Notes: generated by a model not told the origin, from the sequence alone. A stretch of 17,212 nucleotides of DNA from a virus (UHGV-0185805); one strand, 5' to 3'; positions 1,266 through 17,212 are shown, numbered from the stretch's first letter. A program made the numbers and translations.

Positions 1266-1364
1266 CGTTGAAGCCTGCTTTTTTATACTAAGTTGGCATT
1301 ATAAAAAAGCATTGCTTATCAATTTGTTGCAACGAACAGGTCACTATCAGTCAAAATAAAATCA
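1266..1364. other. attL (B-O-P') of lambda-type site-specific recombination; 15-bp core GCTTTTTTATACTAA at 1277-1291, P' arm 1292-1364
   Basis: Sequence gaagcctGCTTTTTTATACTAAgttggcattataaaaaagcattgcttatcaatttgttgcaacgaacaggtcactatcagtcaaaataaaatcattatttg reads as bacterial B arm, core, then lambda P' arm running into the 3' end of int, as remembered from lambda attP. Confidence 0.85.
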
Positions 1365-1973
1365 TTATTTGATTTCAATTTTGTCCCACTCCCTGCCTCT
1401 GTCATCACGATACTGTGATGCCATGGTGTCCGACTTATGCCCGAGAAGATGTTGAGCAAACTTATCGCTTATCTGCTTCTCATAGAGTCTTGCAGACAAA
1501 CTGCGCAACTCGTGAAAGGTAGGCGGATCCCCTTCGAAGGAAAGACCTGATGCTTTTCGTGCGCGCATAAAATACCTTGATACTGTGCCGGATGAAAGCG
1601 GTTCACGACGAGTAGATGCAATTATGGTTTCTCCGCCAAGAATCTCTTTGCATTTATCAAGTGTTTCCTTCATTGATATCCCGAGAGCATCAACATGCAA
1701 TGTTGTTGGGATGGCAATTTTTACGCCTGTTTTGCTTTGCTCGACATAAAGATATCCATCTACGATATCAGACCACTTCATTTCGCATAAATCACCAACT
1801 CGCTGCCCGGTAACAACAGCCAGTTCCATTGCAAGTCTGAGCCAACATGGTGATGATTCTGCTGCTTGATAAATTTTCAGGTATTCGTCAGCCGTAAGTC
1901 TTGATCTCCTTACCTCTGATTTTGCTGCGCGAGTGGCAGCGACAGGGTTTGTTGTTATATGGCCTTGTCGCCG
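1365..1973 (-). pseudogene. int: Lambda-type integrase fragment: C-terminal ~202 codons (catalytic domain) only; N-terminal arm-binding and most of core-binding domain absent; in-frame TAG at 1974-1976
   Basis: ORF 1365-1829 (MELAVVTGQRVGDLCEMKWSDIVDGYLYVEQSKTG...DDRGREWDKIEIK) matches the lambda Int C-terminus as remembered. In-frame homology (..GHITTNPVAATRAAKSEVRRSRLTADEYLKIYQAAESSPCWLRLA) extends 48 codons upstream to a TAG stop with no start codon. Catalytic residues (R in TGQR, HELR, GH, SQY) are retained. Confidence 0.85.
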
Positions 1974-2036
1974 CTACTTCGCGCAAGAAATCGACTTCCC
2001 ATTTCTCCCATGGAGTCTTTTTCATAGGCGATACCG

Positions 2037-2525
2037 TTATTTGATAAGAAGTGAAGGTTTCCCAACTTTGAGTTGAGCGCCGGGGATATTTATTCCTGCT
2101 TTTAGTTGGTGTTTGATTGCCAGTTTGTCGGCTTTAATTGTTGTTTCAAACTCAACGTATTCAGGAGGAAGGGCGCTTGAGTCGATTATTTCTACAATTT
2201 CTGACGGTTTGCGGATTGTTACCTGGTGAATACCTGCTCTAATCTTTTTCTTGCCTACCATTTCAAGCGATGACGCTATATATGATATGATGCTGTCAAT
2301 CTTATTTTGAATTACTGCGGCTCGCTCATTCAGTGACTTTGCCTCTTCCTTGAGGCGTTCAGCATAACCAGATTCATTTTTAATGACGGAAAGAAGTTGC
2401 TCTATTTTATCGGTAAATTCTCCTTCCATGCCTTCTATTGTGTCAGCAATCATCTCTGGCTCTAAATCTGAATCCATCAATTTTGCGTATTCATTGGCTA
2501 TTTCATATAGTTTACTCACTGGCAA
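2037..2525 (-). CDS. Phage Gp157-like protein (family commonly found beside RecT/ERF recombinases)
   Basis: 162-aa acidic helical ORF (MPVSKLYEIANEYAKLMDSDLEPEM...) immediately downstream of the RecT-like gene on the same strand. Family assignment is from memory of the Sipho_Gp157 pattern and synteny, not from a search. Confidence 0.5.
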   Translation of the reverse strand: MPVSKLYEIANEYAKLMDSDLEPEMIADTIEGMEGEFTDKIEQLLSVIKNESGYAERLKEEAKSLNERAAVIQNKIDSIISYIASSLEMVGKKKIRAGIHQVTIRKPSEIVEIIDSSALPPEYVEFETTIKADKLAIKHQLKAGINIPGAQLKVGKPSLLIK

Positions 2526-3168
2526 CCTCCAGTTTCGCTTTGCATTCTATGTAAATGGCTTGTACGTTATGCTGCAATTTCATTCCAGATGTCAGGCGAT
2601 ATGCTTCTGCAAAATATCGCTTCAAATCATCCATGTTTTCTGCCTGAGCCATTTCATCACAAAGAAGTTGTGCTTTATCCGTTATTTCCTGCTGGCGTTT
2701 CCGTTCATCTTCGCGGATATCTTCCTCTGATTTGTACGGCATAACTGGTTCAGTCCATACACCTTCTTCTTCGTTTAGTACGTGAATAGCACTATCAAGA
2801 CGTGATGCCTTAGGCCAATACTTGCTTGCACGCTTTACGACCGTCTTTCGCGCCATCTCATTCCAGTGATTTACCCATGGTCCTTTATCGCTGAATGCCG
2901 CCTTGCTTGTTTTCCTTACAGCCTCAATTTCAGCCAGACTCATCTCTTCCGTTAGATAATCACCTGCTGGCGTCTTAACTGTGCAGTAAACGCCAACGAT
3001 ATCACCACGATCACCGAAGGCGTTGTATTTATGGGTTGGTGCTTTATCAAGCCCGTTTGACTCATAGGTATCGTTAGCATGAACAAGTTTTGCCTGACCC
3101 CATGAGATAACACCAGACTCCATTGCAATATGGAGCAATCCCATATAACTGATATCAAGGCAAACCAT
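2512..3168 (-). CDS. recT: RecT-family single-strand annealing recombinase, N-terminally truncated; homology continues upstream to ~3255-3300 with no start codon
   Basis: ORF contains ...GPWVNHWNEMARKTVVKRASKYWP..., comparable to Rac RecT ...GPWVTHWEEMAKKTAIRRLFKYLP... as remembered. Reading upstream in frame gives ...AIINVAAIGITLNPASKLAYLVPRDG (RecT-like) back to a stop at 3301-3303 with no ATG/GTG/TTG, so roughly the first 70 residues of a normal RecT are missing. Confidence 0.7.
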   Translation of the reverse strand: MVCLDISYMGLLHIAMESGVISWGQAKLVHANDTYESNGLDKAPTHKYNAFGDRGDIVGVYCTVKTPAGDYLTEEMSLAEIEAVRKTSKAAFSDKGPWVNHWNEMARKTVVKRASKYWPKASRLDSAIHVLNEEEGVWTEPVMPYKSEEDIREDERKRQQEITDKAQLLCDEMAQAENMDDLKRYFAEAYRLTSGMKLQHNVQAIYIECKAKLEVASE

Positions 3169-3209
3169 GCCGTCGCGCGGAACTAGATAAGCAAGTTTGC
3201 TGGCCGGGT

Positions 3210-3377
3210 TTAAGGTGATGCCGATCGCCGCAACATTGATGATGGCGTAGGGCGGTGTAATACTTCTGAACTTATTGCTTCTTCGCGGGCCAGTACGCCG
3301 TTAGCTAATGCCTTTGCCTTTAAACGCTCACGACGACGAGAACGTGAATTGCCTTTGAACTGAGTTCTGCGTGTCAT
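3210..3377 (-). CDS. N: N-like transcription antiterminator, P22-type arginine-rich motif, truncated (55 codons, 3' part reads out of frame through RecT-derived DNA)
   Basis: First gene downstream of PL on the minus strand, RBS AGGAGG then ATG at 3375-3377: MTRRTQFKGNSRSRRRERLKAKALANGV... resembles the P22 N arginine-rich boxB-binding peptide (GNAKTRRHERRRKLAIER, from memory). A P22-type boxB hairpin lies in its leader. Normal N proteins are about 100 aa. Confidence 0.55.
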   Translation of the reverse strand: MTRRTQFKGNSRSRRRERLKAKALANGVLAREEAISSEVLHRPTPSSMLRRSASP

Positions 3378-3505
3378 ATAGACCTCCTGGTGAACTTTGG
3401 CGGTGAATACAGCCGGGCGACTAACTCCGGTAGCGTAATCATTGCAAAGCGCCTCCGCCGAGAAGGTTAGCTTCTGCATTCACCCCAAAGTTCACTTTGG
3501 TTATT

Positions 3506-3520
3506 GCGCTTTGTCAGCGC
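3506..3520 (-). promoter_or_regulatory. nutL boxB hairpin, P22 type (GCGCUGACAAAGCGC on the leftward transcript)
   Basis: Reverse complement of 3506-3520 is GCGCTGACAAAGCGC: 5-bp stem with GACAA pentaloop, between PL and the N-like start. Matches P22 boxB as remembered. Confidence 0.6.
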
Positions 3521-3578
3521 CGTAGATTCATATTTGAATCGTTGTATATTCACCGCCCTGGTGAGTAGTGCGTCCTGC

Positions 3579-3641
3579 TGATGTGTTTAGTATCACCGCC
3601 AGTGGTATTTATGTCAACACCGCTAGAGATAATTCATCACC
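3579..3641 (-). promoter_or_regulatory. Lambda-type OL1/OL2/OL3 operators with PL promoter (-10 GATACT at 3579-3584, -35 TTGACA at 3602-3607 on minus strand)
   Basis: OL1 TATCACCGCCAGTGGTA 3581-3597; OL2 CAACACCGCTAGAGATA 3605-3621; OL3 CATCACCGCAGATGGTT 3625-3641. 17-nt spacer between -35 and -10. Confidence 0.85.
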
Positions 3642-3802
3642 GCAGATGGTTATCTGTATGTTTTTTATATGAATTTATTTTTTGCAGGGGTGCATTGTTT
3701 GGTAGGTGAGAGATCTGAACTGCTATGTTTAGTGAGTTGTATCTATTTATTTTCAAATAGATACAATTGGTTATGTGTTCTTGGGTGAGGGGGATCGTGA
3801 GG

Positions 3803-3837: not shown

Positions 3838-4216
3838 TTAGGAATCAAGGTCAGGTAGCATGATTTTCTCAATCAACGTCAATGCCCTTTGGTCTCGTTC
3901 AGCAAAATATTTAGGAGCGTACTGAGGCAGCCACACTTCGTTGAAGTATTGTTTGAAATCTGCAATATTCGTTTGGGTATAGACGTACCGGGAATGTCCG
4001 GCCATCTGGGTACTCATGGTTATATGTTGGGAATGTCTTCGGCTCAACCCCCCGGTTGTCACGGAGCCATTGCGAGAAAACCCTACCCTCTGAAATATCA
4101 GGGACCATTTTTTCTGGCAGCGTATATCCGGCCTGTTCAAGTGGCGCAACCAAGTTAAACGTCAGTTCATTAAGCATAGAAAAGTGCGTATGAGGAACTC
4201 TGCCTCGGTTTGTCAT
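3838..4216 (-). pseudogene. Hypothetical protein in the rexAB position, apparently disrupted by a -1 frameshift near 3985-4000 (ORF 3911-4216 carries the N-terminal part, ORF 3838-4149 the C-terminal part)
   Basis: Two overlapping minus-strand ORFs in different frames. 3911-4216 starts protein-like (MTNRGRVPHTHFSMLNELTFNLVAPLEQAGYTLPEKMVPDISEGRVFSQWLRDNRGVEPKTFPTYNHEYPDGR...) but ends Arg/Ser-rich. 3838-4149 starts junk-like but ends protein-like (...YVYTQTNIADFKQYFNEVWLPQYAPKYFAERDQRALTLIEKIMLPDLDS) right before the terminator. No family recognised. Confidence 0.45.
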
Positions 4217-4255
4217 ATACCGCTTAAGGTGGATAGGGAGTTCGGCAGGCGCTCT

Positions 4256-4597
4256 TTAACCTGACATCCACTCACGCACCCATCTCGATACTTGCACTGC
4301 AAATTTTGGAGATAGCCACTGAGCTAAATTAATTGCGATGTCTGGATGAACCCAAGTCCCTTGATTCTCTGCTCTTCCGCCTTTAAATGATTGAATTAAC
4401 TCCGATATGGGAATCCCCATATCGCGTGATAATTCATCAAAAAAATCTTGTGTTGTTTTTAGTCGTGTATAGTCAGCAAGTAGCTTCCCCGCAGACTTGC
4501 ACATCGCGGTGGCATTGATGTATCCGTCTTTGGTGCGAAGATGGATGACTTCTCCATCAACTTCTCTAGCGATTAATGCAAGTTGAAATTGTGTCAT
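4256..4597 (-). CDS. KilA-N domain protein (stand-alone, 113 aa) immediately downstream of cI
   Basis: ...DGYINATAMCKSAGKLLADYTRLKTTQDFFDEL...WVHPDIAINLAQWLSPKFAVQVSRWVREW fits the KilA-N/Bro-N signature as remembered. AGGA RBS 6 nt upstream of ATG; 31-nt gap after the cI stop. Confidence 0.75.
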   Translation of the reverse strand: MTQFQLALIAREVDGEVIHLRTKDGYINATAMCKSAGKLLADYTRLKTTQDFFDELSRDMGIPISELIQSFKGGRAENQGTWVHPDIAINLAQWLSPKFAVQVSRWVREWMSG

Positions 4598-4628
4598 AAA
4601 TCATCCTATTACGTGAAAAATAAAACAA

Positions 4629-5345
<717 letters not shown>

Positions 5346-5352
5346 TTAAATC

Positions 5353-5418
5353 TATCACCGCAAGGGATAAACTTCTAACACCGTGCGTGTTGACTATTTT
5401 ACCTCTAGCGGTGATAAT
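5353..5418. promoter_or_regulatory. Lambda-type OR3/OR2/OR1 operators with divergent PRM and PR promoters
   Basis: OR3 TATCACCGCAAGGGATA 5353-5369; OR2 TAACACCGTGCGTGTTG 5376-5392; OR1 TACCTCTAGCGGTGATA 5400-5416; PR -35 TTGACT 5390-5395 and -10 GATAAT 5413-5418; RBS TAAGGAGG before cro ATG at 5443. Confidence 0.9.
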
Positions 5419-5442
5419 GGTTGCCTGTACTAAGGAGGTTGT

Positions 5443-5643
5443 ATGGAACAACGCATAACCCTGAAAGATTATGCAATACGCTTTGGGCAAACCAAGACGG
5501 CTAAAGATCTCGGCGTATATCAAAGCGCGATTAACAAGGCCATTCATGCAGGCCGAAAGATTTTTTTAACTATAAACGCTGATGGAAGCGTTTATGCGGA
5601 AGAAATAAAGCCCTTCCCAAGTAACAAAAAAACAACTGCATAA
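5443..5643 (+). CDS. cro: Cro repressor (lambda type, 66 aa)
   Basis: [66 protein letters not shown], two substitutions relative to lambda Cro as remembered. Confidence 0.95.
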
Positions 5644-5650
5644 GTAACAC

Positions 5651-5696
5651 CGCTCTTTTCACAATGGACATTCGTCCTACGTCGCTGACAAAGCGA
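5651..5696 (+). promoter_or_regulatory. nutR: boxA-like CGCTCTTTT (5651-5659) and P22-type boxB hairpin TCGCTGACAAAGCGA (5682-5696)
   Basis: Located between cro and the cII-like gene, where nutR sits in lambdoid phages. The boxB loop (GACAA) is the same type as nutL. A hairpin ATGCGT-TTCC-ACGCAT at 5727-5742 may be a tR1-like structure. Confidence 0.55.
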
Positions 5697-5780
5697 GCCC
5701 CAAGATATCTGACCAACTAAGGCCATATGCGTTTCCACGCATACCTTTCAACTAACTATTCACTATTGGAAAATTAACAA

Positions 5781-6077
5781 ATGACACAAGCAAGTTATAG
5801 CAAGCCAACACAGCGAGAAATTGATCGCGCTGAAACTGATTTACTCATCAACCTGTCAACGCTTACCCAGCGCGGTCTGGCAAAGATGATTGGCTGTCAT
5901 GAATCGAAGATAAGCAGAACGGACTGGAGGTTTATTGCTTCGGTCTTGTGTGCTTTCGGAATGGCATCAGACATCAGTCCGATTAGCAGGGCTTTTAAGT
6001 ATGCATTGGATGGAATCACAAAGAAAAAATCCCCGGCCGCCACCGAGGATTTTAAGCAAATTGATATGCAATTCTGA
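5781..6077 (+). CDS. cII: CII-like transcriptional activator (98 aa), diverged from lambda CII
   Basis: Position after cro/nutR; C-terminus KKKSPAATEDFKQIDMQF parallels lambda CII NKKRPAATERSEQIQMEF (from memory); central HTH-like segment ...GCHESKISR.... Confidence 0.7.
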   Translation: MTQASYSKPTQREIDRAETDLLINLSTLTQRGLAKMIGCHESKISRTDWRFIASVLCAFGMASDISPISRAFKYALDGITKKKSPAATEDFKQIDMQF

Positions 6078-6109
6078 GGTCATTACTGGATCAATCTACA
6101 GGAGTAATT

Positions 6110-6271
6110 ATGACAAAACGTCGTAAGAAATACCAGGAAAAAGAAGAGATTCGACACCCTGATTCACCTGAGGGATTAGTGGTAGCCGCAGCAAATAACA
6201 GGGCGTTCGCAGAGCGCCTTGTTGGTGTTTACAGACTAGCCAAAGTAGGAGTGAAACATGGGCGTCGTTAA
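6110..6271 (+). CDS. Small hypothetical basic protein (53 aa) with strong RBS, unknown function
   Basis: AGGAG 7 nt upstream of ATG at 6110; MTKRRKKYQEKEEIRHPDSPEGLVVAAANNRAFAERLVGVYRLAKVGVKHGRR; stop at 6269-6271, 1 nt from the converging Q fragment stop. Below the ORF-track length cutoff. Confidence 0.3.
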   Translation: MTKRRKKYQEKEEIRHPDSPEGLVVAAANNRAFAERLVGVYRLAKVGVKHGRR

Positions 6272-6272
6272 G

Positions 6273-6752
6273 TTAGCTGATTGCTGGCATTCTTGAATAG
6301 CCGACACCTTTGCATCTTCCGCACTCTTTCTCAACAACTCTCCCCCACTGCTCCGTTTTGGCTATATCAACCGCACGGCCTGTACCGTGGCAATCTCTGC
6401 ATCTTGCACCCGGCGTCGCGGCACTACGGCAATAATCCGCATAAGCGAATATTGCGAGCACTTGCAGTACCTTTGCCTTAGTATTTCCTTCGAGCTTTGC
6501 CACACCACGGTATTTCCCCGATACCTTGTGTGCAAATTGCATCAGATAGTTGATAGCCTTTTGTTTGTCGTTCTGGCTGAGTTCGTGCTTACCGCAAAAT
6601 GCAGCCATCCCGAATCCGGCCTGTGATTGTGCCATCCCCATAGCAGCCATCACATCAGTACCGGAAAGAGAGTCAGAAGCTGTAGCCCGTGGTGAGTCGC
6701 TAATCATCGGGCTTTTTGGCGAATGAAATTTAGCTACGCTTTCGAGTCTCAT
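6273..6752 (-). CDS. Q: Antitermination protein Q, lambda type, C-terminally truncated (159 of ~207 aa), inverted relative to PR
   Basis: MRLESVAKFHSPKSPMISDSPRATASDSLSGTDVMAAMGMAQSQAGFGMAAFCGKHELSQNDKQKAINYLMQFAHKVSGKYRG...CRDCHGTGRAV...CGRCKGVGYSRMP matches the lambda Q N-terminal region including the zinc-binding cysteines as remembered; the ORF then hits a stop where lambda Q continues. Confidence 0.8.
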   Translation of the reverse strand: MRLESVAKFHSPKSPMISDSPRATASDSLSGTDVMAAMGMAQSQAGFGMAAFCGKHELSQNDKQKAINYLMQFAHKVSGKYRGVAKLEGNTKAKVLQVLAIFAYADYCRSAATPGARCRDCHGTGRAVDIAKTEQWGRVVEKECGRCKGVGYSRMPAIS

Positions 6753-7800
6753 GCGCCTTCTCCCTGTAATCGACCAGAATCATGCCAACACATCCTTTTT
6801 CTCGCTTGATTCGACGACTTTCGCTGACGATTTGAGCCAGAGATAATCCCGGCGTGTCGTCGATGTAAAGCAGGTCGATTTCACTCAAGCGATTGGCTGT
6901 TTCGATCGCCCTGTTGAAGTCACCATCGTAATCACCCTGATAGCCGTCATCAGCGTCATTTGTCGCCGGAAGGTAAAAAATATTCGGGTTAACACCAGAC
7001 TTCTGCCCTACCAGTTTTTCCAGTATCTGGTCACCTGGCATTTCAAGGCTGAACATCAGAGCGGGCTTTTTCTCATGCACTGCGCAGTTGATTGCCATCT
7101 GGCTGTATAGCGTCGTTTTCCCCATCTTAGGGCGAGCGCCAATGACAAACAGAGAGCCTTTCACCAGACCTTTCGGTGACAGCATCCTGTCCAGCGATGG
7201 GATCCCTGTGCTCATTCCTCGTTGTTCGCCTGACGGGTCAAATCGCTTCTCAAGGTCGCTAACCCAGTCTTCCATGACCTCACCAAATGAACGAAGGCCG
7301 CGACGCGATCCGGTTTTTGCATGGTCTGTCAGTTGCGTGAAAATCGACTGAATAGCTTCGTACTTCTGCGTTGCAGTCATTCCGTTGCGGGAATAGAGCA
7401 ATTCCGTCGCTTCAGTCATACGGTTGATGGCGTAGCGTTCCATTGCGGTTTCACGAACCTGCATTGCATAGGCAACGATGTTTGCTGCGCTTGGCGTGTT
7501 CTTTGCGATCTCAGCGATATAAGCAAAACCGCCAACAGACACAGTTAACGATTTACGCTCCAGTTCATCGAAAAGCGTCAGGCCATCTACTGGCTTTTGC
7601 TCCCGGTGCATTCTGGTTATTTCTTCGAAAAGGATTTTGTGTGGCCGGCTGTAAAATGAATCAGGCTTCAGCATCGCCAGAACCTTCTGGACGCGCTCAC
7701 TGCTGTCATCATCCAGAAGCAATCCACCAATCACCGCCTGCTCTGCCTCGATGCTATGGGGCGGCGCATAAAAATTATCGGTCATCGTGTTCACCCTCAC
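6730..7800 (-). CDS. DnaB-family replicative helicase (P22 gp12-like), C-terminally truncated at ~356 aa and abutting the Q start
   Basis: N-terminal DnaB signature SIEAEQAVIGGLLLD and Walker A GARPKMGKTT present; ORF ends ...GMILVDYREKAHETRKRS* just after the helicase motif where DnaB proteins normally continue ~100 aa; its stop overlaps the Q ATG. Confidence 0.75.
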   Translation of the reverse strand: MRVNTMTDNFYAPPHSIEAEQAVIGGLLLDDDSSERVQKVLAMLKPDSFYSRPHKILFEEITRMHREQKPVDGLTLFDELERKSLTVSVGGFAYIAEIAKNTPSAANIVAYAMQVRETAMERYAINRMTEATELLYSRNGMTATQKYEAIQSIFTQLTDHAKTGSRRGLRSFGEVMEDWVSDLEKRFDPSGEQRGMSTGIPSLDRMLSPKGLVKGSLFVIGARPKMGKTTLYSQMAINCAVHEKKPALMFSLEMPGDQILEKLVGQKSGVNPNIFYLPATNDADDGYQGDYDGDFNRAIETANRLSEIDLLYIDDTPGLSLAQIVSESRRIKREKGCVGMILVDYREKAHETRKRS

Positions 7801-8293
7801 GAACTTTCAGGTAGGTATTATCGTTAAGCAGGAAATCAAATCCCTTTTTGTGCCAGACAGTTCCGCGTTGATGGTTTGGACGCTCTTCGAACATCCATCG
7901 GCAATTTTCGCCTACGTAGCTCAAATAATTTCTCCAGTCCTGCATCGTGAACCCATGCCCGTCAAGCTGGCGGGTTATCACTCCGGCTTTGCGCCAGAAC
8001 GTTCGGATCTGGTTTTTACGCTTGTCATTCAGTGCGCGGATTCTTGGCGCTTCAGGAAGGATTTCGTGGTAAGCATCGACAACATCCTGACAGCTGACGG
8101 AAGGTTTTTTCTTGTCAGACTTTTTGTCTGCTGTAGCACTCTCTAATACGTCAGTATTAGAGATATTATTTATATTATTGTTTATGGACAACCGTTGGAC
8201 AATTTTTTGCCTGAAAATCGTCATATTTAACGATTGTAAACAGGCTAAATTTCTTCCCCATCGAGCAAATATTAAGCATACCTTTCGACTCAA
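7775..8293 (-). CDS. Replication initiator (O-like) linker and C-terminal part, in a different frame from the upstream N-terminal ORF (frameshifted single gene or two genes)
   Basis: ORF spans the AT-rich palindromic ori-like DNA (translated as ...SINNNINNISNTDVLES...) and ends overlapping the helicase start, as O-type genes do. Confidence 0.45.
   Translation of the reverse strand: MSRKVCLIFARWGRNLACLQSLNMTIFRQKIVQRLSINNNINNISNTDVLESATADKKSDKKKPSVSCQDVVDAYHEILPEAPRIRALNDKRKNQIRTFWRKAGVITRQLDGHGFTMQDWRNYLSYVGENCRWMFEERPNHQRGTVWHKKGFDFLLNDNTYLKVREGEHDDR
8140..8163. repeat. Perfect 10-bp inverted repeat TCTCTAATAC-gtca-GTATTAGAGA flanked by AT-rich DNA; candidate origin element inside the O-like gene
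   Basis: Read directly from the sequence; followed by tattatttatattattgtttat (8164-8186) and a second palindrome AATCGT-n8-ACGATT near 8214-8233. Confidence 0.4.
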
Positions 8294-8525
8294 AAGTCCG
8301 TAATAAGCTCCGAACTTTGTTGTCGGGGATGAATGTTTCTCTGACCAGCGACGGGCGTCCAGTTATCATCTGACCGCGATCAACAGTTATCGGACCGATA
8401 TCCGTATTGACGACAGTAGATTCGTGATTAGCCTTGAGGATTAAGTGAAGCCAAAGATGTACTGCCTGAGAGTCCTTATAGAGCCTGCTGTCCATAAACT
8501 GGCGGTGTATAGAGACATACCCCAT
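8175..8525 (-). CDS. Replication initiator (O-like / P22 gp18-like) N-terminal DNA-binding part
   Basis: MGYVSIHRQFMDSRLYKDSQAVHLWLHLILKANHES... resembles phage replisome-organiser N-terminal domains; directly upstream (same strand) of the helicase. Overlaps the next ORF 8175-8293 in another frame. Confidence 0.55.
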   Translation of the reverse strand: MGYVSIHRQFMDSRLYKDSQAVHLWLHLILKANHESTVVNTDIGPITVDRGQMITGRPSLVRETFIPDNKVRSLLRTFESKGMLNICSMGKKFSLFTIVKYDDFQAKNCPTVVHKQ

Positions 8526-8560
8526 ACTGGATGCCTCCTGATGTTGTACAGGGTTATGCC

Positions 8561-8869
8561 TGTAAACTCAAATCAACAGCCGCCGGACGTTACCAGCTTC
8601 TTTCCCGTTGGTGGGATGCCTACCGTAAGCAGCTTGGACTGAAAGACTTCTCTCCGAAAAGCCAGGACGCTGTGGCACTGCAGCAGATTAAAGAGCGTGG
8701 CGCTTTACCGATGATTGATCGCGGTGATATCCGTCAGGCTATCGACCGTTGCAGTAATATCTGGGCTTCACTGCCGGGCGCTGGTTATGGTCAGTTCGAG
8801 CATAAGGCTGACAGCCTGATTGCAAAATTCAAAGAAGCAGGCGGAACGGTCAGAGAGGTTGAGGTATGA
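8561..8869 (+). pseudogene. R: Endolysin R fragment (lambda-type transglycosylase, C-terminal ~100 codons only)
   Basis: ...[100 protein letters not shown] matches the lambda R C-terminal half as remembered. The N-terminal catalytic part and the holin gene are absent; the ATG at 8531 lies in junction DNA. Confidence 0.85.
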
Positions 8870-10443: not shown

Positions 10444-12281
10444 TGAAAGTAACTGCAAACGGTAAGACATTTACCTTCCCTGATGGTACGAGCACGGAAG
10501 ATATTGGCACCGCCATTGATGAGTATTTTGCTGGTCAGGCTGTTCAGCAACAAACAGTTAATCAGGCCAATAATGAACCAGCACGTGAAGAACCATCATT
10601 GATGCAACAAGCTGGCGATTGGCTCACAGGTGGTCAAAGTGCAGGGCAAATTGCAGAGCAGGCTGGTCGTGGTCTGGTAAACATACCATTTGACGTATTG
10701 CAGGGCGGCGCAAGTCTGATTAATGCAATCAGTCAGGGGCTTGGTGGACCCAAGGTTTTGGATGATGTTTATCGTCCAGTAGACAGACCGACAGACCCAT
10801 ACGCACAAGCCGGTGAAACAATTGGTGGGTATTTAGTTCCAGGAGTTGGAACGGCAGGAAGCATGGCTATTGGATCACTGGCAGAGGCCGCAAATCAGAA
10901 AGGCGATTTCGCACAAAATGCAGCTAAAAATGCCGGAGTTAACCTTGCCGCTCAGGGGGTTCTTTCCGCAGCAGCAAAGGGAATAGGGCGTGGAATAACG
11001 GCTATAAAAGGTGATATTGCGCCAGAAGTGGCGAAGAAAATTGCCACATCAGAATCGATGGGCGTGACACCAATGACATCTGATGTTATCCCGCCGAAAA
11101 ATGCTTTCACTCGCGGCCTTACTCAGGATGCCGAGGGGGCTTTGCTCGGGACAGGCTCAAAGCGAGCGGAGCAATATGCAACGCGTAGTAAGTTGGTAAG
11201 TAATTATTTTGACCGTTTTGGTGAGTACAACCCGGATGATGTGGTGAAATCTCTGACCACCACGTTAAGGGGACGGAAGGATGCCGCTGGCGCTGTTATC
11301 AATGACGTCACCAATAAAATGGGGAATGCCGCAGTTGATACCACAAACACTATGAATGCTCTGAATACAGCGATCGCAAGACAGGAACGGCTTGGGACGT
11401 CTGCCAATCAAAGCCTGCTTACATCCTTGCGTAACCTACGCGAAGAATTAGCAAACCCTGCAACTGATTTGGATGTTACGTTTGATCTCTTGCGTCAGCA
11501 CAGAACAGCATTTAGATCTAATGTTCAGGGAGATGCTATGGTCTTCCCCAACCAGGCAAAAGCAGCTACCAATATGGTAGAGAATGCAATGTCAAAAGAC
11601 CTTCGTAACGCAGTTGCTAAAAACCTCGGTGCATCAGACGCAGCAAAATACCTTAAAGCAAATTCAGATTATGCAAACGTTTATAATAAGGTGCTTAATA
11701 AAAACATTGCTAACAAGCTCAACAAGGCAAGCAGTGAAGCCAGTCCTGAACTTATAAATACCGTTGTATTAAGCAGAAAACCATCTGACGTGAAACGAAT
11801 CTGGAGCGCATTGGATGATAAAGGGAAAGATGCTATGCGTGCAGCTTACGTCAGCAAAATAGCGGAAAAGGCCGGTGACTCTCCAGCCAAGTTCATCACT
11901 GAAGTTAATAAGCTTAAATCTCAGTCAGGCGGTGAAATTTACAACACTATTTTTTCTGGAAAGCACATGAAAGAGCTCGATGCTCTTCATGAAGTTCTAC
12001 AGCAAACAGCAAGGTCAGACACCGCAAATGTAGTAACTCAGACGGGGCAATCACAAGCCAACAGGATAAGGACGATTGGCGCAACTGCGACTCTTGGAGT
12101 ATCAATGGGGCTTGAGGCTGGTTTTGGTGCAATGATGCGTTTGTATGAGTCCAAAGCAGCAAGGAATGCGCTCTTACGTCTGGCAAACACTAAAGCTGGA
12201 ACGCCAGCTTATGAAAGAGCGCTAAATCAGGCTGCTACTGCCGTGCGCCCGCTCTTAGCTAACGAAGCGACCCGGCAGTAG
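10440..12281 (+). CDS. Probable DNA-ejection (internal virion) protein, P22 gp16-like (613 aa)
   Basis: Size close to P22 gp16 as remembered (~609 aa), Ala/Gly-rich, follows the gp20-like ORF with overlapping start and precedes the sieA-position / mnt-arc-ant / tailspike block as in the P22 map. Assigned by synteny; no search run. Confidence 0.6.
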
Positions 12282-12303: not shown

Positions 12304-12798
12304 TTATTTTATAGTTTTTATGAATTCTTTATTAAATCCCTTAGCTTCTCCGGGGTATCTTCCAAAGACAATTTTTATAAAAACAGAAAAAATAAAGATA
12401 GCAACGCTTAACAACAGTTGCAGTATCATTGGAACCCAAAGAACTACAGGCTCTATATTCATGAAACCAAATATTCTTCCGGCGATCATGGCGAAGTACC
12501 ACACTGTTATCAGCAAACTTAGTGGCATATGAATTACTGATATTACCAATCCAAGAGCATCAGTAATTCTATTTTCAAATTTTTCAGGGGAAAACTTTTC
12601 TTTAAGGTAATTCAGTGCGCAGGCCTCATTCTCTGGATTTTCAGCATTTTTCCCTATAGCAATAGAAATCTCAGATATCCTTGATTCAATTCTTTTGCGT
12701 TTAATAAAACTAGAAAAAAAGAACCACGCAATCTGCAACCCTATCCCCATAAATAGAGTTGCGGCAACTAGCACAGCGTAACTCATAGAATCAGACAC
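12304..12798 (-). CDS. Small inner-membrane protein (about 4 TM helices) in the position of P22 sieA; candidate superinfection-exclusion protein
   Basis: Hydrophobic segments ([25 protein letters not shown]; [31 protein letters not shown]; [30 protein letters not shown]); AT-rich. Start uncertain: GTG at 12796-12798 with GAGG 5 nt upstream, ATG at 12784-12786, or the track start at 12870. Confidence 0.45.
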
Positions 12799-13015
12799 AC
12801 CAACCTCTTTAGTTTTTCTAGTTACTTTGTCACGATAGGATATGCGAATTGATAAAACTAAATTGCGCACATGATAACTCAGTAATAATTGTTAATGAAA
12901 ACATGATCACCTATATTGCACAAGGCGAAACAGGAAGCATAATCTGGTTTCATGAGTGTGATCACGTTTGGGTAAATCAAAGTCAAGAGGAAATACTTGA
13001 AATTATCAAAAATAA

Positions 13016-13597
13016 CTATCTAAACGTTGCACACGACTCATCTATCCATTTTTCATAAAATTGTATACCGAGATAGGCAAGAACAGATGGATGTATATCA
13101 ACAAGCTTTTCGCCAAGATGTTCTGTTGGAGGTGGATAATCTTTTCCTTGGTTTCTTACGGTTATAGGCATAGTTGTTGCTGGATGAAACTCAACTATCA
13201 TAGGGTCGCCTTCGTATTTTGCTATTTTCCCTGTTGAATCAATGATTAACTCTTTAATATAATGGCTTCTTGCTCCCGGAAATGCCCCAAGAGTAGTATA
13301 AGGAGGTTCAAGTTTTGAGATTTCCATAGTGGAATGATGATCAGCATTTCTTGCTTGGTGAAGGTAAGCAAGTGTTTTGTCTGTTTTTCTAAGCATGAAC
13401 TTTTGGTTGAAGTGGCTGCTAAATTTTCCACTAACCGGCTTTGTTGCACAGAGCAACTTACTGAAAGACTTTTCTATATGCCCAAGACATTCTCGCCAGT
13501 GCATTTCAAAATCATCATGGTTTGTAGATGATTTCATCTGCTCTAGGCACTTTTTAGCTGCGATGATTTCTTTTTTTGCTGGGTTGTAATCGATCAT
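13016..13597 (-). CDS. Hypothetical 193-aa protein translationally coupled to mnt (ATGA overlap); possible HEPN-like RNxxxH motif; function unknown
   Basis: ATG at 13595-13597 overlaps the mnt stop (13594-13596); AGGA RBS lies inside the last mnt codons. AT-rich, no family recognised. Contains ...LHQARNADHHS..., which fits the HEPN Rx4-6H pattern but is weak evidence on its own. Confidence 0.6.
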   Translation of the reverse strand: MIDYNPAKKEIIAAKKCLEQMKSSTNHDDFEMHWRECLGHIEKSFSKLLCATKPVSGKFSSHFNQKFMLRKTDKTLAYLHQARNADHHSTMEISKLEPPYTTLGAFPGARSHYIKELIIDSTGKIAKYEGDPMIVEFHPATTMPITVRNQGKDYPPPTEHLGEKLVDIHPSVLAYLGIQFYEKWIDESCATFR

Positions 13598-13848
13598 TTT
13601 GCATCCTTGCCATACATGTTTTTAAGTGTCTCAAATACCACAGACTTGAACTGTTCAGCCTGCATCTCGGCTAATCGTTCAGCTTCATTGCGATAACCTT
13701 TTACAGGAGATGGTCTCGATAGAGCATCTTGGACGATTTGCAACAATTCTGAGTTCATTGATCTACCATTTGACTCTGCTCTGTATTTTAATTTTTCTCT
13801 TACTTCCAAAGGCATGCGGAAGTTAAAGTGCGGATCATCTCTAGCCAT
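13594..13848 (-). CDS. mnt: Mnt repressor (P22 immI maintenance repressor, ribbon-helix-helix)
   Basis: MARDDPHFNFRMPLEVREKLKYRAESNGRSMNSELLQIVQDALSRPSPVKGYRNEAERLAEMQAEQFKSVVFETLKNMYGKDAK is near-identical to P22 Mnt as remembered. It is the 3' 84 codons of track ORF 13594-14244, whose upstream extension is spurious. Confidence 0.85.
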   Translation of the reverse strand: MARDDPHFNFRMPLEVREKLKYRAESNGRSMNSELLQIVQDALSRPSPVKGYRNEAERLAEMQAEQFKSVVFETLKNMYGKDAK

Positions 13849-13870
13849 GCCATCACTCCAAGTTAGTGTA

Positions 13871-13922
13871 TTGACATGATAGAAGCACTCTACTATATTC
13901 TCAATAGGTCCACCGTGGACCC
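13871..13922. promoter_or_regulatory. immI control region: Pant (-35 TTGACA 13871-13876, -10 TATATT 13894-13899), Arc operator (13876-13896) and Mnt operator GGTCCACCGTGGACC (13907-13921)
   Basis: ATGATAGAAGCACTCTACTAT matches the P22 arc operator as remembered; the symmetric GGTCCACCGTGGACC matches the Mnt operator; arrangement between divergent mnt and arc as in P22. Confidence 0.7.
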
Positions 13923-13938
13923 ATATTGTGAGGTGAAT

Positions 13939-14100
13939 ATGAAAGGAATGAGCAAAATGCCGCAGTTCAATTTGCGGTGGCCTAAAGAAGTATTGGATTT
14001 GGTACGCAAGGTGGCGGAAGAGAATGGTCGGTCTGTTAACTCTGAGATTTATCAGAGAGTAATGGAAAGTTTTAAGAAGGAAGGACGCATTGGCGCGTAA
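13939..14100 (+). CDS. arc: Arc repressor (P22 immI, 53 aa)
   Basis: MKGMSKMPQFNLRWPKEVLDLVRKVAEENGRSVNSEIYQRVMESFKKEGRIGA is near-identical to P22 Arc as remembered; the track ORF start at 13876 lies inside the operator and is rejected. Confidence 0.9.
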   Translation: MKGMSKMPQFNLRWPKEVLDLVRKVAEENGRSVNSEIYQRVMESFKKEGRIGA

Positions 14101-14169
14101 AGTTGAAGCCCCAACTGCGGGAACAGTCAGGGCTTCGATATCGTAAAACCACGCATAGGAATTAACGAC

Positions 14170-15093
14170 ATGAAAAGTATAGCAACAGCAGTATCTACTA
14201 TCAATGTACCATTCCACGGCGCAGAGCTTTATGTTGTCAATCACAACGGTGAGCCGTACACCCCAATGAAACCTATCGTTGAGGGAATGGGTATGGATTG
14301 GGCTTCACAGTTTACAAAGTTAAAACAAAGATTTGCTAAAGGAATTGTGGAAATCGCAATACCTTCAGTTGGCGGTGTGCAGACCATGATTTGCCTTGCT
14401 TTACGTAAACTGAATGGCTGGTTGCAAACCATCAGCCCTAACAAAGTCCGCCCTGAAATCCGCGACAATGTAATCCAGTATCAAGAAGAGTGTGACGATG
14501 TGCTATACGAGTACTGGACTAAAGGCCATGTAGTTAACCCACGCAAAGCTAAAAAAGCGTTGCCGGGTAAAATCACCACTGAACAGCAGGAAGCCATTAA
14601 ACAACTCGTCATGAGTCGCGGTCAGTCTCTGCCAAAAGAAAAACAGGCTAAGGCGATGATCACCATGTGGTCGTCACTAAAATCCCATTTTGGATGTTCG
14701 TACAAAGAAATCAGTGAGGAGCAGTTTACCGAAGCACTATCACTTGCAGCTCGAGTTCCACTTGAAGGTGAGTTCATTGGCAAACAAGAGAAGAAAACCA
14801 ACGAGCTTTCTGCAAAAGAAGCAAACAGCCTTGTATGGTTATGGGATTATGCCAACCGTTCGCAGGCATTATTCCGCGAACTGTATCCGGCGCTAAAACA
14901 AATTCAATCGAACTATTCCGGCAGATGCTACGACTACGGTCATAAGTTCTCGTATGTTATCGGAATGGCGAGAGACGTTTTAATAAACCACACACGAGAT
15001 GTTGATATTAATGAGCCAGACGGACCAACGAATCTTTCCGCATGGATGAGACTTAAGAATAAAGAATTACCTCCTTCAGTACATAACTACTGA
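14170..15093 (+). CDS. ant: Antirepressor Ant (P22 immI type, 307 aa)
   Basis: Follows arc after a 69-nt spacer with an AGGA RBS and is followed by a terminator and the tailspike, exactly the P22 mnt-arc-ant-gene 9 synteny; size matches Ant (~300 aa). Confidence 0.7.
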
Positions 15094-15111
15094 CAGATAA
15101 CCAACGCAACG

Positions 15112-15136
15112 ACCCAGCTTCGGCTGGGTTTTTTTA
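15112..15136 (+). terminator. Rho-independent terminator downstream of ant
   Basis: Stem ACCCAGC (15112-15118) / GCTGGGT (15123-15129), loop TTCG, followed by TTTTTTT. Confidence 0.65.
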
Positions 15137-15193
15137 TGCCCAAAATTCACCGTAGCCATGCTGCGGCGATTCCTTGTATCTGGAGCAAATTAA

Positions 15194-17212
15194 ATGACAG
15201 ACATTACAGCTAATGTTGTAGTGAGCATGCCTTCGCAACTCTTCACTATGGCTCGTTCTTTTAAAGCTGTAGCCAATGGCAAAATTTATATCGGTAAAAT
15301 TGACACTGACCCGGTAAATCCTGAAAACCAGATTCAGGTTTATGTGGAGAACGAAGACGGATCTCACGTTCCTGTTTCGCAACCAATCATCATTAACGCT
15401 GCTGGATATCCGGTATATAACGGACAGATTGCCAAATTCGTTACCGTGCAAGGCCATTCTATGGCTGTTTATGATGCATATGGTGCTAAGCAGTTCTATT
15501 TTCCGAATGTGCTGAAGTATGACCCTGATCAATTAAGAGAGGAATTATCTAGTAAAGGTGGTTTTAATTTAGTTGGTGAGTTGGGTGCTGTATCTGATTT
15601 TTATGGAATGGAATCTAATAATGGAGATAAGGTTTTACTAAAGTCATGGTATCGAGATGGAAGTGGTGGTGGTGGTATTTTTGAGTTTAATGACAGCATA
15701 ATAAGGTCGAAGCATGACGGAGGGTGTATAATATCACCATCAGTTCCATATATTGGAGATGCATATGTATCAGACTATGTAAACGGAGTTGGAGATGAAC
15801 ATCCATCATCAAACGGTTGTTGGGTTAGAAGAGACATCAAAGAAATCACAGGTGAAATGTATGGTATGCATGGAAATCCTGATGATAACTTGGACTTATC
15901 ACCAAATCTAAGGAAGGCCATTTCAGCCGCCGGAGTTCTTGGGCTTGGGGTCGTTTTACCAGGCAATATTATAAATTTAAAATCACCAGTATCAATACCA
16001 ATACACCAGAGAGAAGGTGGAAAAGTAGCTTATATAAGAGGTGTTGACGAAAAGTTATCAATAGTAAATATACTAGCTTCAGAAACTTCGCAGAATAATT
16101 TCGGGATTTATCTTGATGGCTCTCTTTCAGTATTTTCATCATTCCCCATAGAAAACCTCACTATCAGATCTGTAGATTCAAGTGCCAATAGATCTGACTG
16201 GTCAGGATTTGGATTAAATATAAACAAATGCATCAGGCTTTCAATGAGGAATGTTCTGATAGATGGCTTTGAGATTGGGTGTAAACTGAAAGATTCATTA
16301 TATCTTGAGTTTAACAATTGTAGATTTACTTATAACAAAACAGCAATACAAGGAAGACTTGGTGAAGTGTCAGGACCAAACTCAATAAGACTTTCACGCT
16401 GTGATTTTCAGTACAATGCTGAATTTTGTATCGAAAACCAACACGCACACGCTTGGAAAATTGACACTTGTACGTTTGAAGCAAATGGAGGGAAATCATA
16501 TTCCAACGGGACCCCAATTGCATTTAATTCGTGCGTACAGTTTGCGTTGATTGGTGGTGCAGGTCGTGTCGCAGCAACAATTGATAATTGCTATTTCGAA
16601 TCAAATACTGGTTCTGATGTGAGTTTTTACATAAACAGAAACTTAAATCAAATTATTAACATAAATAATTCAATATTTAACTATAATTTAGATTCCGTTA
16701 GCGCATCTAGAGTTATAGTACAGTCAAATCAATCAGATCTCAGTTCTGGTGTTCAATGTTATTTGAATATGATGGGAAATGGTTTTCTTAACACTGGTGC
16801 TTCTGCTGAATCTGCATTTAAAGAAGTGCAATTTGTCGTCCCTTCATCTTTTGGTGTTAGCCATCTTGTTTTTACAGACTTTGGCAACCAAAATTCAATG
16901 AAATCACCATATTCTGGATTGGAAAAAGTTCAGAGAAATAGCCAAGGGTTGGTATCTGCAAGAGCAAATATTTCATCTACAGGTGCTTATTCATTAGCTC
17001 AGAACATATCAAATGTATCTAGACTGCCATCAGGAACATATAAGATAGATTTTACATTTAACGTTTCAACACTCGTTCCAAATATTACATTGTTTGGAGG
17101 ATCTGGTAGATATTCAAGTTTCTCAAGGGATTCAGACTATTCAATTACGGTTAAGACATTTAATAATACAGGTGCCAATGTTGATTTGGATTTTATTATT
17201 ACAGTAATGTAA
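15194..17212 (+). CDS. Tailspike protein: P22 gp9-type N-terminal head-binding domain (~115 aa) fused to a divergent AT-rich beta-helix receptor-binding domain (672 aa total)
   Basis: [60 protein letters not shown]...[31 protein letters not shown] matches the P22 tailspike N-terminus as remembered; homology and GC content drop after about codon 115 (near 15540). The remainder is rich in N/S/G/I repeats typical of right-handed beta-helix polysaccharide-binding or depolymerase domains. Stop at 17210-17212. Confidence 0.85.

Follow-up and report, generated by a model that had tools for sequence, protein, structure and literature searches.

Six junctions in a probable lambda/P22-type prophage remnant at the att-lambda site of Escherichia coli

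Introduction

The window studied here (the whole 17,212-nucleotide stretch of UHGV-0185805) places lambda-type and P22-type phage genes, many of them truncated, beside the host gene ybhC, and raises the question of how such a patchwork arose and whether selection kept what is left of it. An earlier note on this DNA described a composite prophage fossil with at least six deletion or fusion junctions, suggested that lysogen-expressed and host-interaction functions had been selectively retained, and proposed alignment to lambda and P22-family genomes, comparison across occupied att-lambda sites and a search for attR on the far side. We mapped the junctions by BLAST against lambda, HK97, P22, Dewey, PhiR5_2, the ST540, ETEC1716 and Combat2C1 prophages, and L038, a less-deleted relative that served as the collinear reference for the left-arm junctions; gene identities are backed by Pfam, PADLOC, PHROGs and Rfam (Table 1). 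The window is very probably a decayed lambda/P22-type prophage remnant of an E. coli lineage, lying at att-lambda between ybhC and ybhB. Every breakpoint could be mapped, all six junctions proved real, and the remnant is an ordinary case of prophage decay, through five large deletions and one inversion.

Results

The 15-bp lambda att core is intact on both sides of the element. The attR core lies outside the window, 467 bp past the tailspike stop in sister contigs; in one of these, L009, the cores are found at 2334 and 18814, and ybhB, bioA and bioB follow. A lambda-type tyrosine integrase, now truncated, sits beside attL; at the other end, attR is adjoined by a lambda P arm with 87-94% identity to lambda and HK97. 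Between the tailspike and attR is the 3' remnant of intS, a second type of integrase; the junction of this remnant with the P arm predates the fossil, because the ETEC1716 prophage has it too (94% identity).

Table 1. Features and junctions (J1-J6) of the UHGV-0185805 window in order of position.
Feature	Position	Strand	Basis
ybhC, host gene truncated 5' at the window edge; chromosomal DNA to the left of att-lambda	1-1230	-	99.7% identity to E. coli ETEC1716 ybhC; Pfam Pectinesterase on sister-locus gene call
attL core GCTTTTTTATACTAA (lambda att core)	1277-1291	+	exact match at 1277
int', C-terminal 200 codons of lambda-type integrase	1365-1966	-	99.1% identity to lambda 27724-28413; Pfam Phage_integrase 4.7e-41
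J1, int' to tail of small early-left gene	1960-1966		microhomology TGGCNTT (6/7); ~4.07 kb deleted
Sipho_Gp157 / Mu-Gam-like gene, intact, 160 aa	2037-2519	-	Pfam PF05565 full length 3.8e-36; phrog_253; 98% identity to phage Dewey
recT', without first 169 nt	2512-3248	-	Pfam RecT profile positions 60-186 only
N', first 43 codons of N antiterminator + 12 out-of-context codons	3210-3377	-	Pfam N_peptide profile positions 3-54 of 100
J2, recT' to N'	3247-3248		microhomology GT; 1795 bp deleted (gam, kil, cIII and others); L038 reference
oL1-oL3 (lambda specificity) with pL	3591-3651	+	0, 1, 1 mismatches to lambda oL1, oL2, oL3
bstA-like defence pseudogene (KilA-N + BstA C-terminal part)	3838-4597	-	PADLOC BstA and Pfam KilA-N matches
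cI repressor, intact, 237 aa	4629-5342	-	233/237 identical to lambda cI; Pfam HTH_3 + Peptidase_S24
oR3-oR2-oR1 with pRM/pR	5353-5416	+	0, 0, 1 mismatches to lambda
cro, intact, 66 aa	5443-5643	+	64/66 identical to lambda Cro
cII, HK97 type, intact, 98 aa	5781-6077	+	97% nucleotide identity to HK97; Pfam Phage_CII on sister-locus gene call
Small ORF, HK97 gp53-like, intact, 53 aa	6110-6271	+	phrog_1331 full length
Inverted block: Q' 6281-6752, J4 6766-6768, helicase' 6766-7785, O' 7775-8565	6281-8565	-	all references align reversed; Pfam Antiterm, DnaB
J3, O nt ~25 to reverse-complement Q nt 472	6281-6282		exact TT; 8/10 extended microhomology
J4, 16 nt upstream of Q start to helicase nt 1020	6766-6768		microhomology GTA; 4251 bp nin region deleted; ST540 prophage reference
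77-bp (7 x 11 bp) loss in TGGACAACCGT repeat region of O	8185-8202		specific to UHGV-0185805 copy and L020
J5, reverse-complement O nt 24 to R nt 172	8564-8565		microhomology AA; 992 bp missing
'R, endolysin without first 57 codons	8564-8869	+	92% identity to lambda from 45664; 94% to ST540
Rz'::gp20' in-frame fusion ORF, 525 aa	8866-10443	+	Pfam Phage_lysis residues 29-142; Inj_translocase residues 130-262
J6, Rz codon 134 to gp20 ~codon 101	9267-9268		~12.6 kb lost
gp16-type ejection (DNA transfer) protein, intact, 612 aa	10443-12281	+	phrog_770 full length; 99% identity to Combat2C1 prophage
sieA superinfection exclusion gene, intact	12304-12870	-	phrog_7745, SieA-like, 1.2e-108
193-aa ORF, function unknown, low G+C, between sieA and mnt	13016-13597	-	phrog_23516 full length
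mnt repressor, 84 aa	13594-13848	-	Pfam Arc + Repressor_Mnt
arc repressor, 53 aa	13939-14100	+	Pfam Arc on sister-locus gene call; 90% identity to P22
sar antisense RNA	14101-14168	-	Rfam RF00262, 81.8 bits, full length
ant antirepressor, intact, 307 aa	14170-15093	+	Pfam P22_AR_N + P22_AR_C
Tailspike, intact, 672 aa, P22-type head-binding + rare receptor-binding domain	15194-17212	+	Pfam Head_binding 1-113

The left arm has lost the N-terminal arm- and core-binding part of the integrase together with xis. The flanks of J1, which lies where the earlier note had put the loss of the int N-terminus (~1962), are ~4.07 kb apart in L038; this relative occupies the same att site, and its left arm runs from int to the repressor, where the fetched locus stops, with neither the J1 nor the J2 deletion. 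At J2, the Dewey match ends at 24917, 169 nt before the recT start codon at 25086 (minus-strand gene 24172-25086), and homology to HK97 and PhiR5_2 begins at 3247. A recT lacking its 5' end is indeed joined to a truncated N, but the position first given, 3260-3300, was 15-50 bp off.

The immunity region of the UHGV-0185805 copy is of lambda type and intact, as had been claimed. Three of the six operators match lambda exactly and three differ by one base; judged from these and from the sequences of cI and cro, the element is predicted to belong to the lambda immunity group (imm-lambda). Between N' and cI lies a dead gene that the first reading had overlooked. BstA abortive-infection defence relies on one protein, KilA-N at its N-terminus and a BstA domain at its C-terminus, whose gene lies beside the repressor (PMC8585504). 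The position and domains of the bstA-like gene fit this description, but its reading frame is broken in all copies by a stop codon (GAA>TAA at 4258) and a frameshift (a 2-bp deletion between 3966 and 3965, relative to the intact 253-aa PhiR5_2 gene).

The most complex rearrangement affects the replication genes and Q, which form a block read from the minus strand; its natural orientation is that of cro and cII. The DnaB_C match in the helicase fragment covers positions 1-141 of the 255 in the profile, and O is broken, without its first 8 codons. This inverted block had gone unnoticed in the earlier note, which listed deletion or fusion junctions; J3 and J5 are not simple deletions but inversion junctions with one common breakpoint in O. 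Also missed was the 77-bp loss in the O repeats, a region in which sister copies and phage references hold 66, 77 or 88 extra bases. The note took Q to be cut at codon 159 (~6273); 6273 is the stop of the resulting ORF and not the junction. Its helicase without a C-terminus, abutting the Q start at 6753-6770, corresponds to J4. The 992 bp lost at J5 comprise the Q C-terminus, pR', S and the R N-terminus, and the ORF call for 'R (8531-8869) begins in antisense O sequence. The endolysin gene is truncated close to where it was thought to be (~8560), but by 57 of its 158 codons, about a third and not half.

We propose that a single complex rearrangement, by serial template switching or by break-and-rejoin, probably produced J3, J4 and J5, because the outer junctions reuse a single O coordinate while 992 bp vanish on the opposite side; two events would have to coincide. 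The path would lead from O nt 25 into reversed Q (472 to -16), then through reversed helicase from nt 1020 to O nt 24, and finally to R nt 172. No intermediate with just some of the six junctions was found.

At J6 the fusion of Rz to gp20 is in frame, and the sequence from the 3' end of Rz to gp20 codon 100, with all of the head genes, is gone. The fusion to a late ejection gene and the removal of the morphogenesis region had thus been read correctly. Rz1, which is embedded in the fusion ORF from 9086, now runs on to 9346. This exact fusion protein is recorded on 133 contigs in 273 blocks of the collection. Downstream of it the element is P22-like, with gp20/gp16, sieA, mnt-arc-sar-ant and a tailspike carrying the P22 head-binding domain; the immI module and tailspike are intact in the UHGV-0185805 copy, in agreement with the note. 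The 193-aa ORF had no match in Pfam or PADLOC. The receptor-binding part of the tailspike is 99.1% identical to that of a 673-aa tailspike from an apparently complete prophage of E. coli S10.

About 20 independent assemblies, from isolates and metagenomes and with contigs of 4.9-5.3 Mb among them, show the same junctions at 99.8-100% identity; for all six, wherever a sister copy retains the region concerned, the junction is there too. The copies differ by no more than 0.06%, except for the indel-rich L012/L025 and a short, SNP-rich overlap with L014. Further nested deletions and IS insertions are seen among them: immI is gone from three sister forms, in which sieA is also either interrupted or deleted and the tailspike is missing or cut short, and at least two events, possibly three, account for this (IS5 in L011, an IS3-family, ISSen4-like element in L043, and a related, possibly derived deletion in L042). 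The arrangement is inherited vertically and still shrinking in sister genomes.

Discussion

Consideration of the missing DNA gives insight into the origin of the element. Five stretches are absent (~4.07, 1.8, 4.25, 0.99 and ~12.6 kb), and these 23.7 kb together with the 16.4-16.5 kb that remain add up to 40.2 kb, the size of one P22-like genome; the parent was pieced together from several relatives of 94-99% identity, with no single genome as reference, so that the deletion sizes are estimates. All in all we are confident that the element is a grounded, non-excisable remnant of a single phage of ~40 kb, defective in replication, lysis and assembly. The parent would have been a P22-like lambdoid phage with a lambda-type int/att module and lambda immunity, integrated at att-lambda. 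In the remnant, int/xis, N, O/P, Q, the holin-endolysin-spanin genes and the head genes are each truncated or absent. By analogy with lambda and P22 it would now be unable to excise, antiterminate, replicate, lyse the host or build particles; cI, conferring lambda-type immunity, SieA and Mnt are probably still made, on the basis of predicted expression, and the other genes are most likely silent cargo awaiting deletion.

Other origins for this structure were weighed against decay of a single phage. That the truncations are misassemblies or homopolymer frameshifts is so improbable as to be negligible: some copies are of low quality, and the L012/L025 assembly has 8 small indels in 8 kb that split even ybhC, but the junctions link non-adjacent or inverted DNA, unlike frameshifts, and their recurrence in the independent assemblies argues that they are not errors; a separate metagenome contig also matches 3992-10502 at 100%. 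The composite character that the earlier note saw need not mean two phages. For the left arm (int, cI, cro, Q, R, Rz) the most similar sequences come from lambda, HK97 or ST540-type phages, for the right arm from P22-like prophages, and with the intS remnant this might suggest a lambda/HK97-like siphovirus and a P22-like phage in tandem at att-lambda, with Rz::gp20 a deletion across their boundary. We regard this as very unlikely. Remnant and losses yield a normal 40-kb genome, so two sources are not required, and over 50 kb would have to be deleted from a tandem source; att-lambda does house P22-like prophages whose int/xis is of lambda type and whose lysis genes are of the lambda family, ETEC1716 having the same architecture at the same site, and the intS/P-arm junction that it shares is older than the fossil. 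It is also unlikely that the inversion, and some deletions, were the work of insertion sequences that have since disappeared. IS elements do remodel sister copies, derived forms reuse breakpoints (6299 in L026 and L042; within 3 bp of J4 in L011), and J3 and J5 may each carry the O dinucleotide TT/AA, a repetition like a short target duplication. However, no IS sequence was found anywhere in the window, there is no known mechanism by which two IS copies could leave both inversion junctions without a scar, and microhomology explains the 2-bp overlap equally well. All six junctions carry merely 2-7 bp of microhomology, and no repeats were found flanking them; short microhomology with neither repeat nor IS is the signature of illegitimate recombination, of the short-homology or replication-slippage type.

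A separate question is whether decay of this single phage was steered by selection for lysogen functions (cI immunity, SieA exclusion, Mnt/Arc control and perhaps the tailspike) while host-killing functions were purged. The idea of such retention is already established in the literature: incomplete prophages in surveys preferentially lose lytic genes and are enriched in tail-fibre genes (PMC7744054), and prophage 'grounding' has been argued to be favoured (PMC6379469). In keeping with it, the host-killing and mobility functions are all broken (int/xis, N, kil/cIII, O, P, Q, S, R and Rz), cI and its operators are intact in UHGV-0185805, and no sound sister form covering cI has lost it, whatever the search-anchor gene, only the indel-rich L012/L025 calling it broken. 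In the UHGV-0185805 copy three of four recognisable lysogen-type genes are intact, against ~9 of ~58 others (Fisher p = 0.02, from rough counts that take genes as independent, whereas deletion of contiguous blocks means that they are not independent samples). However, the bstA-like gene, typically lysogen-expressed, is dead in all copies, and cro, cII, gp16 and ant are intact with no role in the lysogen, the tailspike likewise not being a lysogen function. With 1-7 differences per 6-9-kb alignment block, the copies are too close for dN/dS. We therefore consider domestication a doubtful possibility for this element, and the selective retention put forward earlier at best weakly supported, because immI, sieA and the tailspike are gone from some sister copies and cI alone is kept throughout the sound copies covering it.

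DLP12, Rac, Qin and e14 are the standard examples of prophage grounding in E. coli K-12. Like the remnant, they are lambdoid, grounded by loss or truncation of int/xis, shortened by deletion, and made up of pseudogenes and a few working genes (PMC6379469). In contrast to them, the remnant lies at att-lambda, stems from a parent with P22-like virion genes and lambda immunity, is much younger, as the closeness of its copies and the intact att cores indicate, and retains a complete immI region and tailspike. Its right arm is collinear with the Combat2C1 and ETEC1716 prophages (gp20-gp16-sieA-(193 aa)-mnt-arc-sar-ant-tailspike, 97-99% identity); the S10 prophage has another module between gp16 and mnt. 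The Combat2C1 and S10 prophages look complete and are found at argW with intS, whereas the remnant, at att-lambda with a lambda-type int fragment, is without terminase through gp7.

J4 resembles the classical lambda nin5 deletion in taking out the nin region, which separates the replication genes from Q; other independent P-Q deletions are present in the ETEC1716 and D7 prophages. Unlike nin5, J4 is no termination bypass, because it also cuts the last 139 helicase codons and the whole block is inverted. Template-switch or MMBIR-type models come mostly from work on events in eukaryotes and in laboratory E. coli. By analogy, the J3-J5 pattern resembles what such models predict, with several 2-3 bp microhomology junctions, an inverted segment flanked by loss and one coordinate used twice.

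Limits of the element and its six junctions

From position 1277 onwards the window is entirely phage-derived, and its final codon is the stop codon of the tailspike gene. The attR sought on the far side is present in sister contigs, in which another att core, 467 bp past the tailspike stop, is followed by ybhB, bioA and bioB. With att cores on both sides, the element is a prophage at att-lambda bounded by attL and attR; it is ~16.4 kb long here and 16,495 bp in the sister locus L009.

We aligned the whole window to lambda, HK97, P22, the phages Dewey, PhiR5_2 and ECP1, the prophages of ST540, ETEC1716, Combat2C1 and S10, and L038, a less-deleted relative at att-lambda. The six junctions proposed in the earlier note are real; its coordinates are within a few bases for most of them, with J2 misplaced by 15-50 bp, and R lacks one third of its length and not the half suggested there. 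All genes were assigned by direct similarity, and the assignments are supported by Pfam, PHROGs, PADLOC and Rfam, with partial domain matches as expected. Direct or inverted repeats able to mediate the inversion or the deletions were not found, save for one 19-bp inverted pair (3507-3525 and 5677-5695) at the expected place of nutL and nutR, and a search of the window for IS remnants found none. Retention of the reading frame in the Rz::gp20 fusion is probably due to chance, which would give it in one case out of three. The embedded Rz1 lipoprotein frame (9086-9346) is nearly whole, at about 60 codons, with 26 further codons across J6.

Features of the prophage remnant and further deletions in sister copies. 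Positions are those of the window; a prime marks a truncated gene; sources in brackets are the references used to measure a loss.
Feature	Position	Sequences joined or affected	Microhomology	Loss
ybhC	1-1230	Host gene		
Lambda att core	1277-1291	GCTTTTTTATACTAA; start of the element		
J1	1960-1966	Lambda-type int (99% to lambda), C-terminal 200 codons only, to tail of small early-left gene	TGGCNTT (6/7)	About 4.07 kb (L038)
J2	3247-3248	recT without first 169 nt to first 43 codons of N	GT	1795 bp, including gam, kil, cIII (L038)
bstA-like pseudogene	3838-4597	KilA-N and BstA C-terminal part; N'-cI interval, rex position beside cI		
J3	6281-6282	First ~25 nt of O to Q nt 472, backwards	TT (8/10 over ten bases)	
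J4	6766-6768	16 nt upstream of Q start to helicase nt 1020	GTA	4251 bp of nin region (ST540)
J5	8564-8565	Reverse-complement O nt 24 to R nt 172	AA	992 bp
J6	9267-9268	Rz codon 134 to gp20 ~codon 101, in frame, 525-aa ORF	2 bp	About 12.6 kb: terminase, portal, scaffold, coat, gp4, gp10, gp26, gp14, gp7 (S10)
L011/L024/L035	12821	IS5 insertion		5535-6766; IS5 takes sieA 5' end, immI, tailspike
L023				5619-8704 and 8888-10506
L026				6300-10238
L027				6619-11127
L043		IS3-family element		12846-15473, replaced
L042/L044	6299	Joined through 134-bp IS end to 15474		sieA, immI, tailspike head-binding domain

Authenticity and distribution

Homopolymer errors, raised earlier as a way in which the truncations might be misread, cannot create these junctions, because they join non-adjacent or inverted DNA. 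Assembly error fares no better as an explanation: the same junctions are found in about 20 independent isolate and metagenome loci, including contigs of 4.9-5.3 Mb, which are 99.8-100% identical to the window wherever they overlap and carry every junction they cover. The exact Rz::gp20 protein is recorded on 133 contigs and in 273 blocks of the collection, assigned to E. coli by NCBI naming; the RecT fragment is recorded in 422 blocks, and GCA_900450495.1 is one of the carrier strains. The junctions are absent from all 5,426 complete RefSeq E. coli genomes, with best coverages of 43% for the whole window and 67% for 6100-9500 as queries. The exact J6 pattern was found in one contig of the JGI metagenomes and in none of the species-representative genomes.

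An inverted block between J3 and J5

All references align to 6281-8565, which holds Q', helicase' and O', in reverse orientation, while the flanks (cI-cro-cII on the left, R-Rz on the right) are in normal orientation. J3 and J5 are thus inversion junctions; the earlier note had listed them among deletion or fusion junctions and overlooked the inversion. In ST540 coordinates O is left at 15931-15933 (left junction) and entered again at 15932-15934 (right junction), so that the breakpoint in O is common to both to within 2 bp; on the other side, 992 bp from Q nt 472 to R nt 172 are missing.

A plain inversion with a later deletion would account for the reversed orientation, but the deletion would then have had to end exactly on an existing junction. 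No intermediate carrying only part of the junctions was found, including among the 5,426 RefSeq genomes. The prophage of strain D7 was considered as a helicase-Q deletion intermediate and rejected, as its P-Q deletion differs, its helicase is full-length and its Q is cut at the N-terminus. Judged from the sequence, a single complex event fits J3, J4 and J5 better than an inversion with a later deletion. We propose that these junctions could have arisen through a chain of template switches or multi-break rejoining, along a path that would run from O nt 25 to Q in reverse (nt 472 to -16), then in reverse from helicase nt 1020 to O nt 24, and finally to R nt 172.

One mosaic phage or two

The earlier note described a composite of lambda and P22. 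The mosaic character of a lambdoid phage at att-lambda is borne out; a fusion of two phages is not needed to explain it. The estimated losses of 23.7 kb and the 16.5-kb remnant add up to about 40.2 kb, as expected for a single P22-like genome. The ETEC1716 prophage at the same site combines lambda-type int and xis with an early region of lambdoid type, lysis genes of the lambda family and virion genes like those of P22. Between tailspike and attR (L009 18514-18605, ~170-260 bp past the window end), ~90 bp remain of the 3' end of an integrase gene of the intS (argW) type, and they abut the lambda P arm adjoining attR; the same junction is present in ETEC1716, and it looks like an older mosaic seam in the phage family. 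L038 (a 4.7-Mb contig, GCA_045584695.1; 1-9900) carries a left arm at att-lambda that is 95-97% identical and is without the J1 and J2 deletions; the arm, covered from int as far as the repressor, holds full recT, kil, cIII, full N and the early-left genes, and can serve as a reference close to the parent. The size sum, the ETEC1716 architecture with its shared seam and the L038 arm together lead us to read the remnant as one mosaic lambdoid phage that would have decayed in situ; it does not look like a fusion of two prophages.

An int' ORF of 154 aa is found in 773 blocks of the collection. We rejected the idea that truncated int is one old shared remnant, since truncation points and partners differ among blocks and J1 is specific to this fossil. 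Truncated lambda-type int beside ybhC (as in the loci L032-L041, with int' at 10001-10465 in each) is very common but stands in unrelated remnants, in which its surroundings include IS elements, DLP12-like genes and, in some genomes, a nearby IpaH-type gene; the latter genomes are probably Shigella. The att-lambda site appears to be a place where prophage remnants of independent origin have piled up.

Smaller lesions and continued erosion

The first 8 codons of O are absent from every copy. A further 77 bp of an 11-bp repeat array (TGGACAACCGT) are lost from the gene at 8185-8202, in the window and the metagenome contig L020 only. Other, otherwise identical copies have 66, 77 or 88 bp more than the window (for example the sister locus L013, 9232-9337), and array length shifts the O frame in some copies; these length differences stem either from slippage during replication or from repeats collapsed in assembly. 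Relative to the intact PhiR5_2 gene, the bstA-like gene is broken by a new stop codon at 4258 (GAA>TAA) and by the loss of 2 bp at 3966/3965, and its gene calls are split identically in all sister copies. BstA is described as an abortive-infection defence system (PMC8585504).

The sister copies have lost immI (mnt-arc-sar-ant), sieA and tailspike in three forms and at least two events, one by IS5 (L011) and one by an IS3-family element (L043); L042, which has the 15474 endpoint in common with L043, may derive from an L043-like copy. The full 1221-bp IS3-family element (L043 8745-9965) is 99.8% identical to the strain 81 element that carries the annotation ISSen4. A 134-bp piece of its end (bases 1088-1221) recurs without any difference, and with one common inner endpoint, at L042 9832-9965, L044 449-582, L023 7241-7374 and L041 9788-9921; its three contexts are unrelated, one of them being another att-lambda remnant.

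Two different deletions have 6299 as their left end, one reaching 10239 (L026 6870/6871) and one an IS fragment (L042 9833/9834, and L044). In L011 (7836-7838) 5534 is joined to 6767, a new deletion end within 3 bp of J4. Such coincidences suggest that later deletions re-use old coordinates more often than expected by chance. The broader proposition, that J3, J4 and J5 are one multi-step template-switch footprint in a natural genome and that prophage-decay junctions are hotspots for further rearrangement, with the recurrent 134-bp IS3-family end counted among the examples, seems to us rather unlikely.

Intact genes and predicted capacity

The P22-type immI, lambda-type immunity and tailspike described earlier as intact are so in the window's copy, by gene, operator and length comparisons. 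The intact genes are a Gp157/Mu-Gam-like gene, cI, cro, cII, a 53-aa ORF, gp16, sieA, a 193-aa ORF, mnt, arc, sar RNA, ant and a 672-aa tailspike. cI and cro match lambda at 233/237 and 64/66 residues, and the six lambda operators have 0-1 mismatch each. The receptor-binding part of the tailspike (15500-17212) has a low G+C content of 35-38% and is 99.1% identical to the 673-aa tailspike of the apparently complete S10 prophage. It is rare, being found in one of 5,426 complete E. coli genomes (S10, in an argW prophage), and its closest phage tailspike, from Hafnia phage Pocitis76, is 33% identical. The 193-aa ORF (13016-13597, between sieA and mnt; phrog_23516) has low G+C, no match in Pfam or PADLOC, and is kept in the prophages of ETEC1716, Combat2C1 and strain 81, which makes it a moron candidate.

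By analogy with lambda and P22 biology, the element is predicted to be unable to excise (no Xis and no Int N-terminal domains), antiterminate (N and Q truncated), replicate (O and helicase truncated, inverted and cut off from pR), lyse (holin absent, R without its N-terminal third) or assemble particles (head genes all gone). In lambda R, the third that is missing here contains the catalytic glutamate. cI should still be made from pRM, and SieA and Mnt are probably made from their own promoters; cI thus probably makes carrier strains immune to phages with lambda immunity.

Selective retention and relation to known prophages

The earlier note held that lysogen-expressed and host-interaction functions were selectively retained while lytic ones were purged. 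The window's copy fits this pattern: three of four recognisable lysogen-type genes are intact versus some 9 out of roughly 58 others (Fisher test, p = 0.02, from rough gene counts in one copy with genes treated as independent), and killing and mobility functions are all damaged. The case is weakened by the block-wise nature of deletion, the dead bstA-like gene and the survival of the non-lysogen genes cro, cII, gp16 and ant, and by the loss of immI, sieA and tailspike in sisters. Comparison across the sister copies is more informative, since it shows the same fossil still shrinking. Whatever gene anchored the search, cI is present in every form covering it, with the indel-rich assembly L012/L025 as the sole exception. 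At the sequence level the retention pattern is suggestive of selection for cI only. The observation in the earlier note is therefore confirmed and sharpened, and its interpretation is right in part.

The remnant alone matters little; its value lies in a clean, young and well-populated decay series, in which a single E. coli lineage has all six junctions in common and, on top of them, at least six additional variants by deletion or IS insertion. With shared junctions and derived variants, one could measure directly in what order and by which mechanism (microhomology or IS) erosion proceeds and whether it is selective, and the probable lambda-immunity of carriers matters where phages are used to type or treat this lineage.

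That lambdoid prophages become defective, lose lytic genes and retain immunity is textbook knowledge, and the remnant is one more of the well-known cryptic lambdoid prophages. Grounding, preferential lytic-gene loss and tail-fibre gene enrichment in incomplete prophages have already been published (PMC6379469, PMC7744054). The only features out of the ordinary, and these mildly so, are the three-junction inverted block with its shared breakpoint and the apparent re-use of breakpoints.
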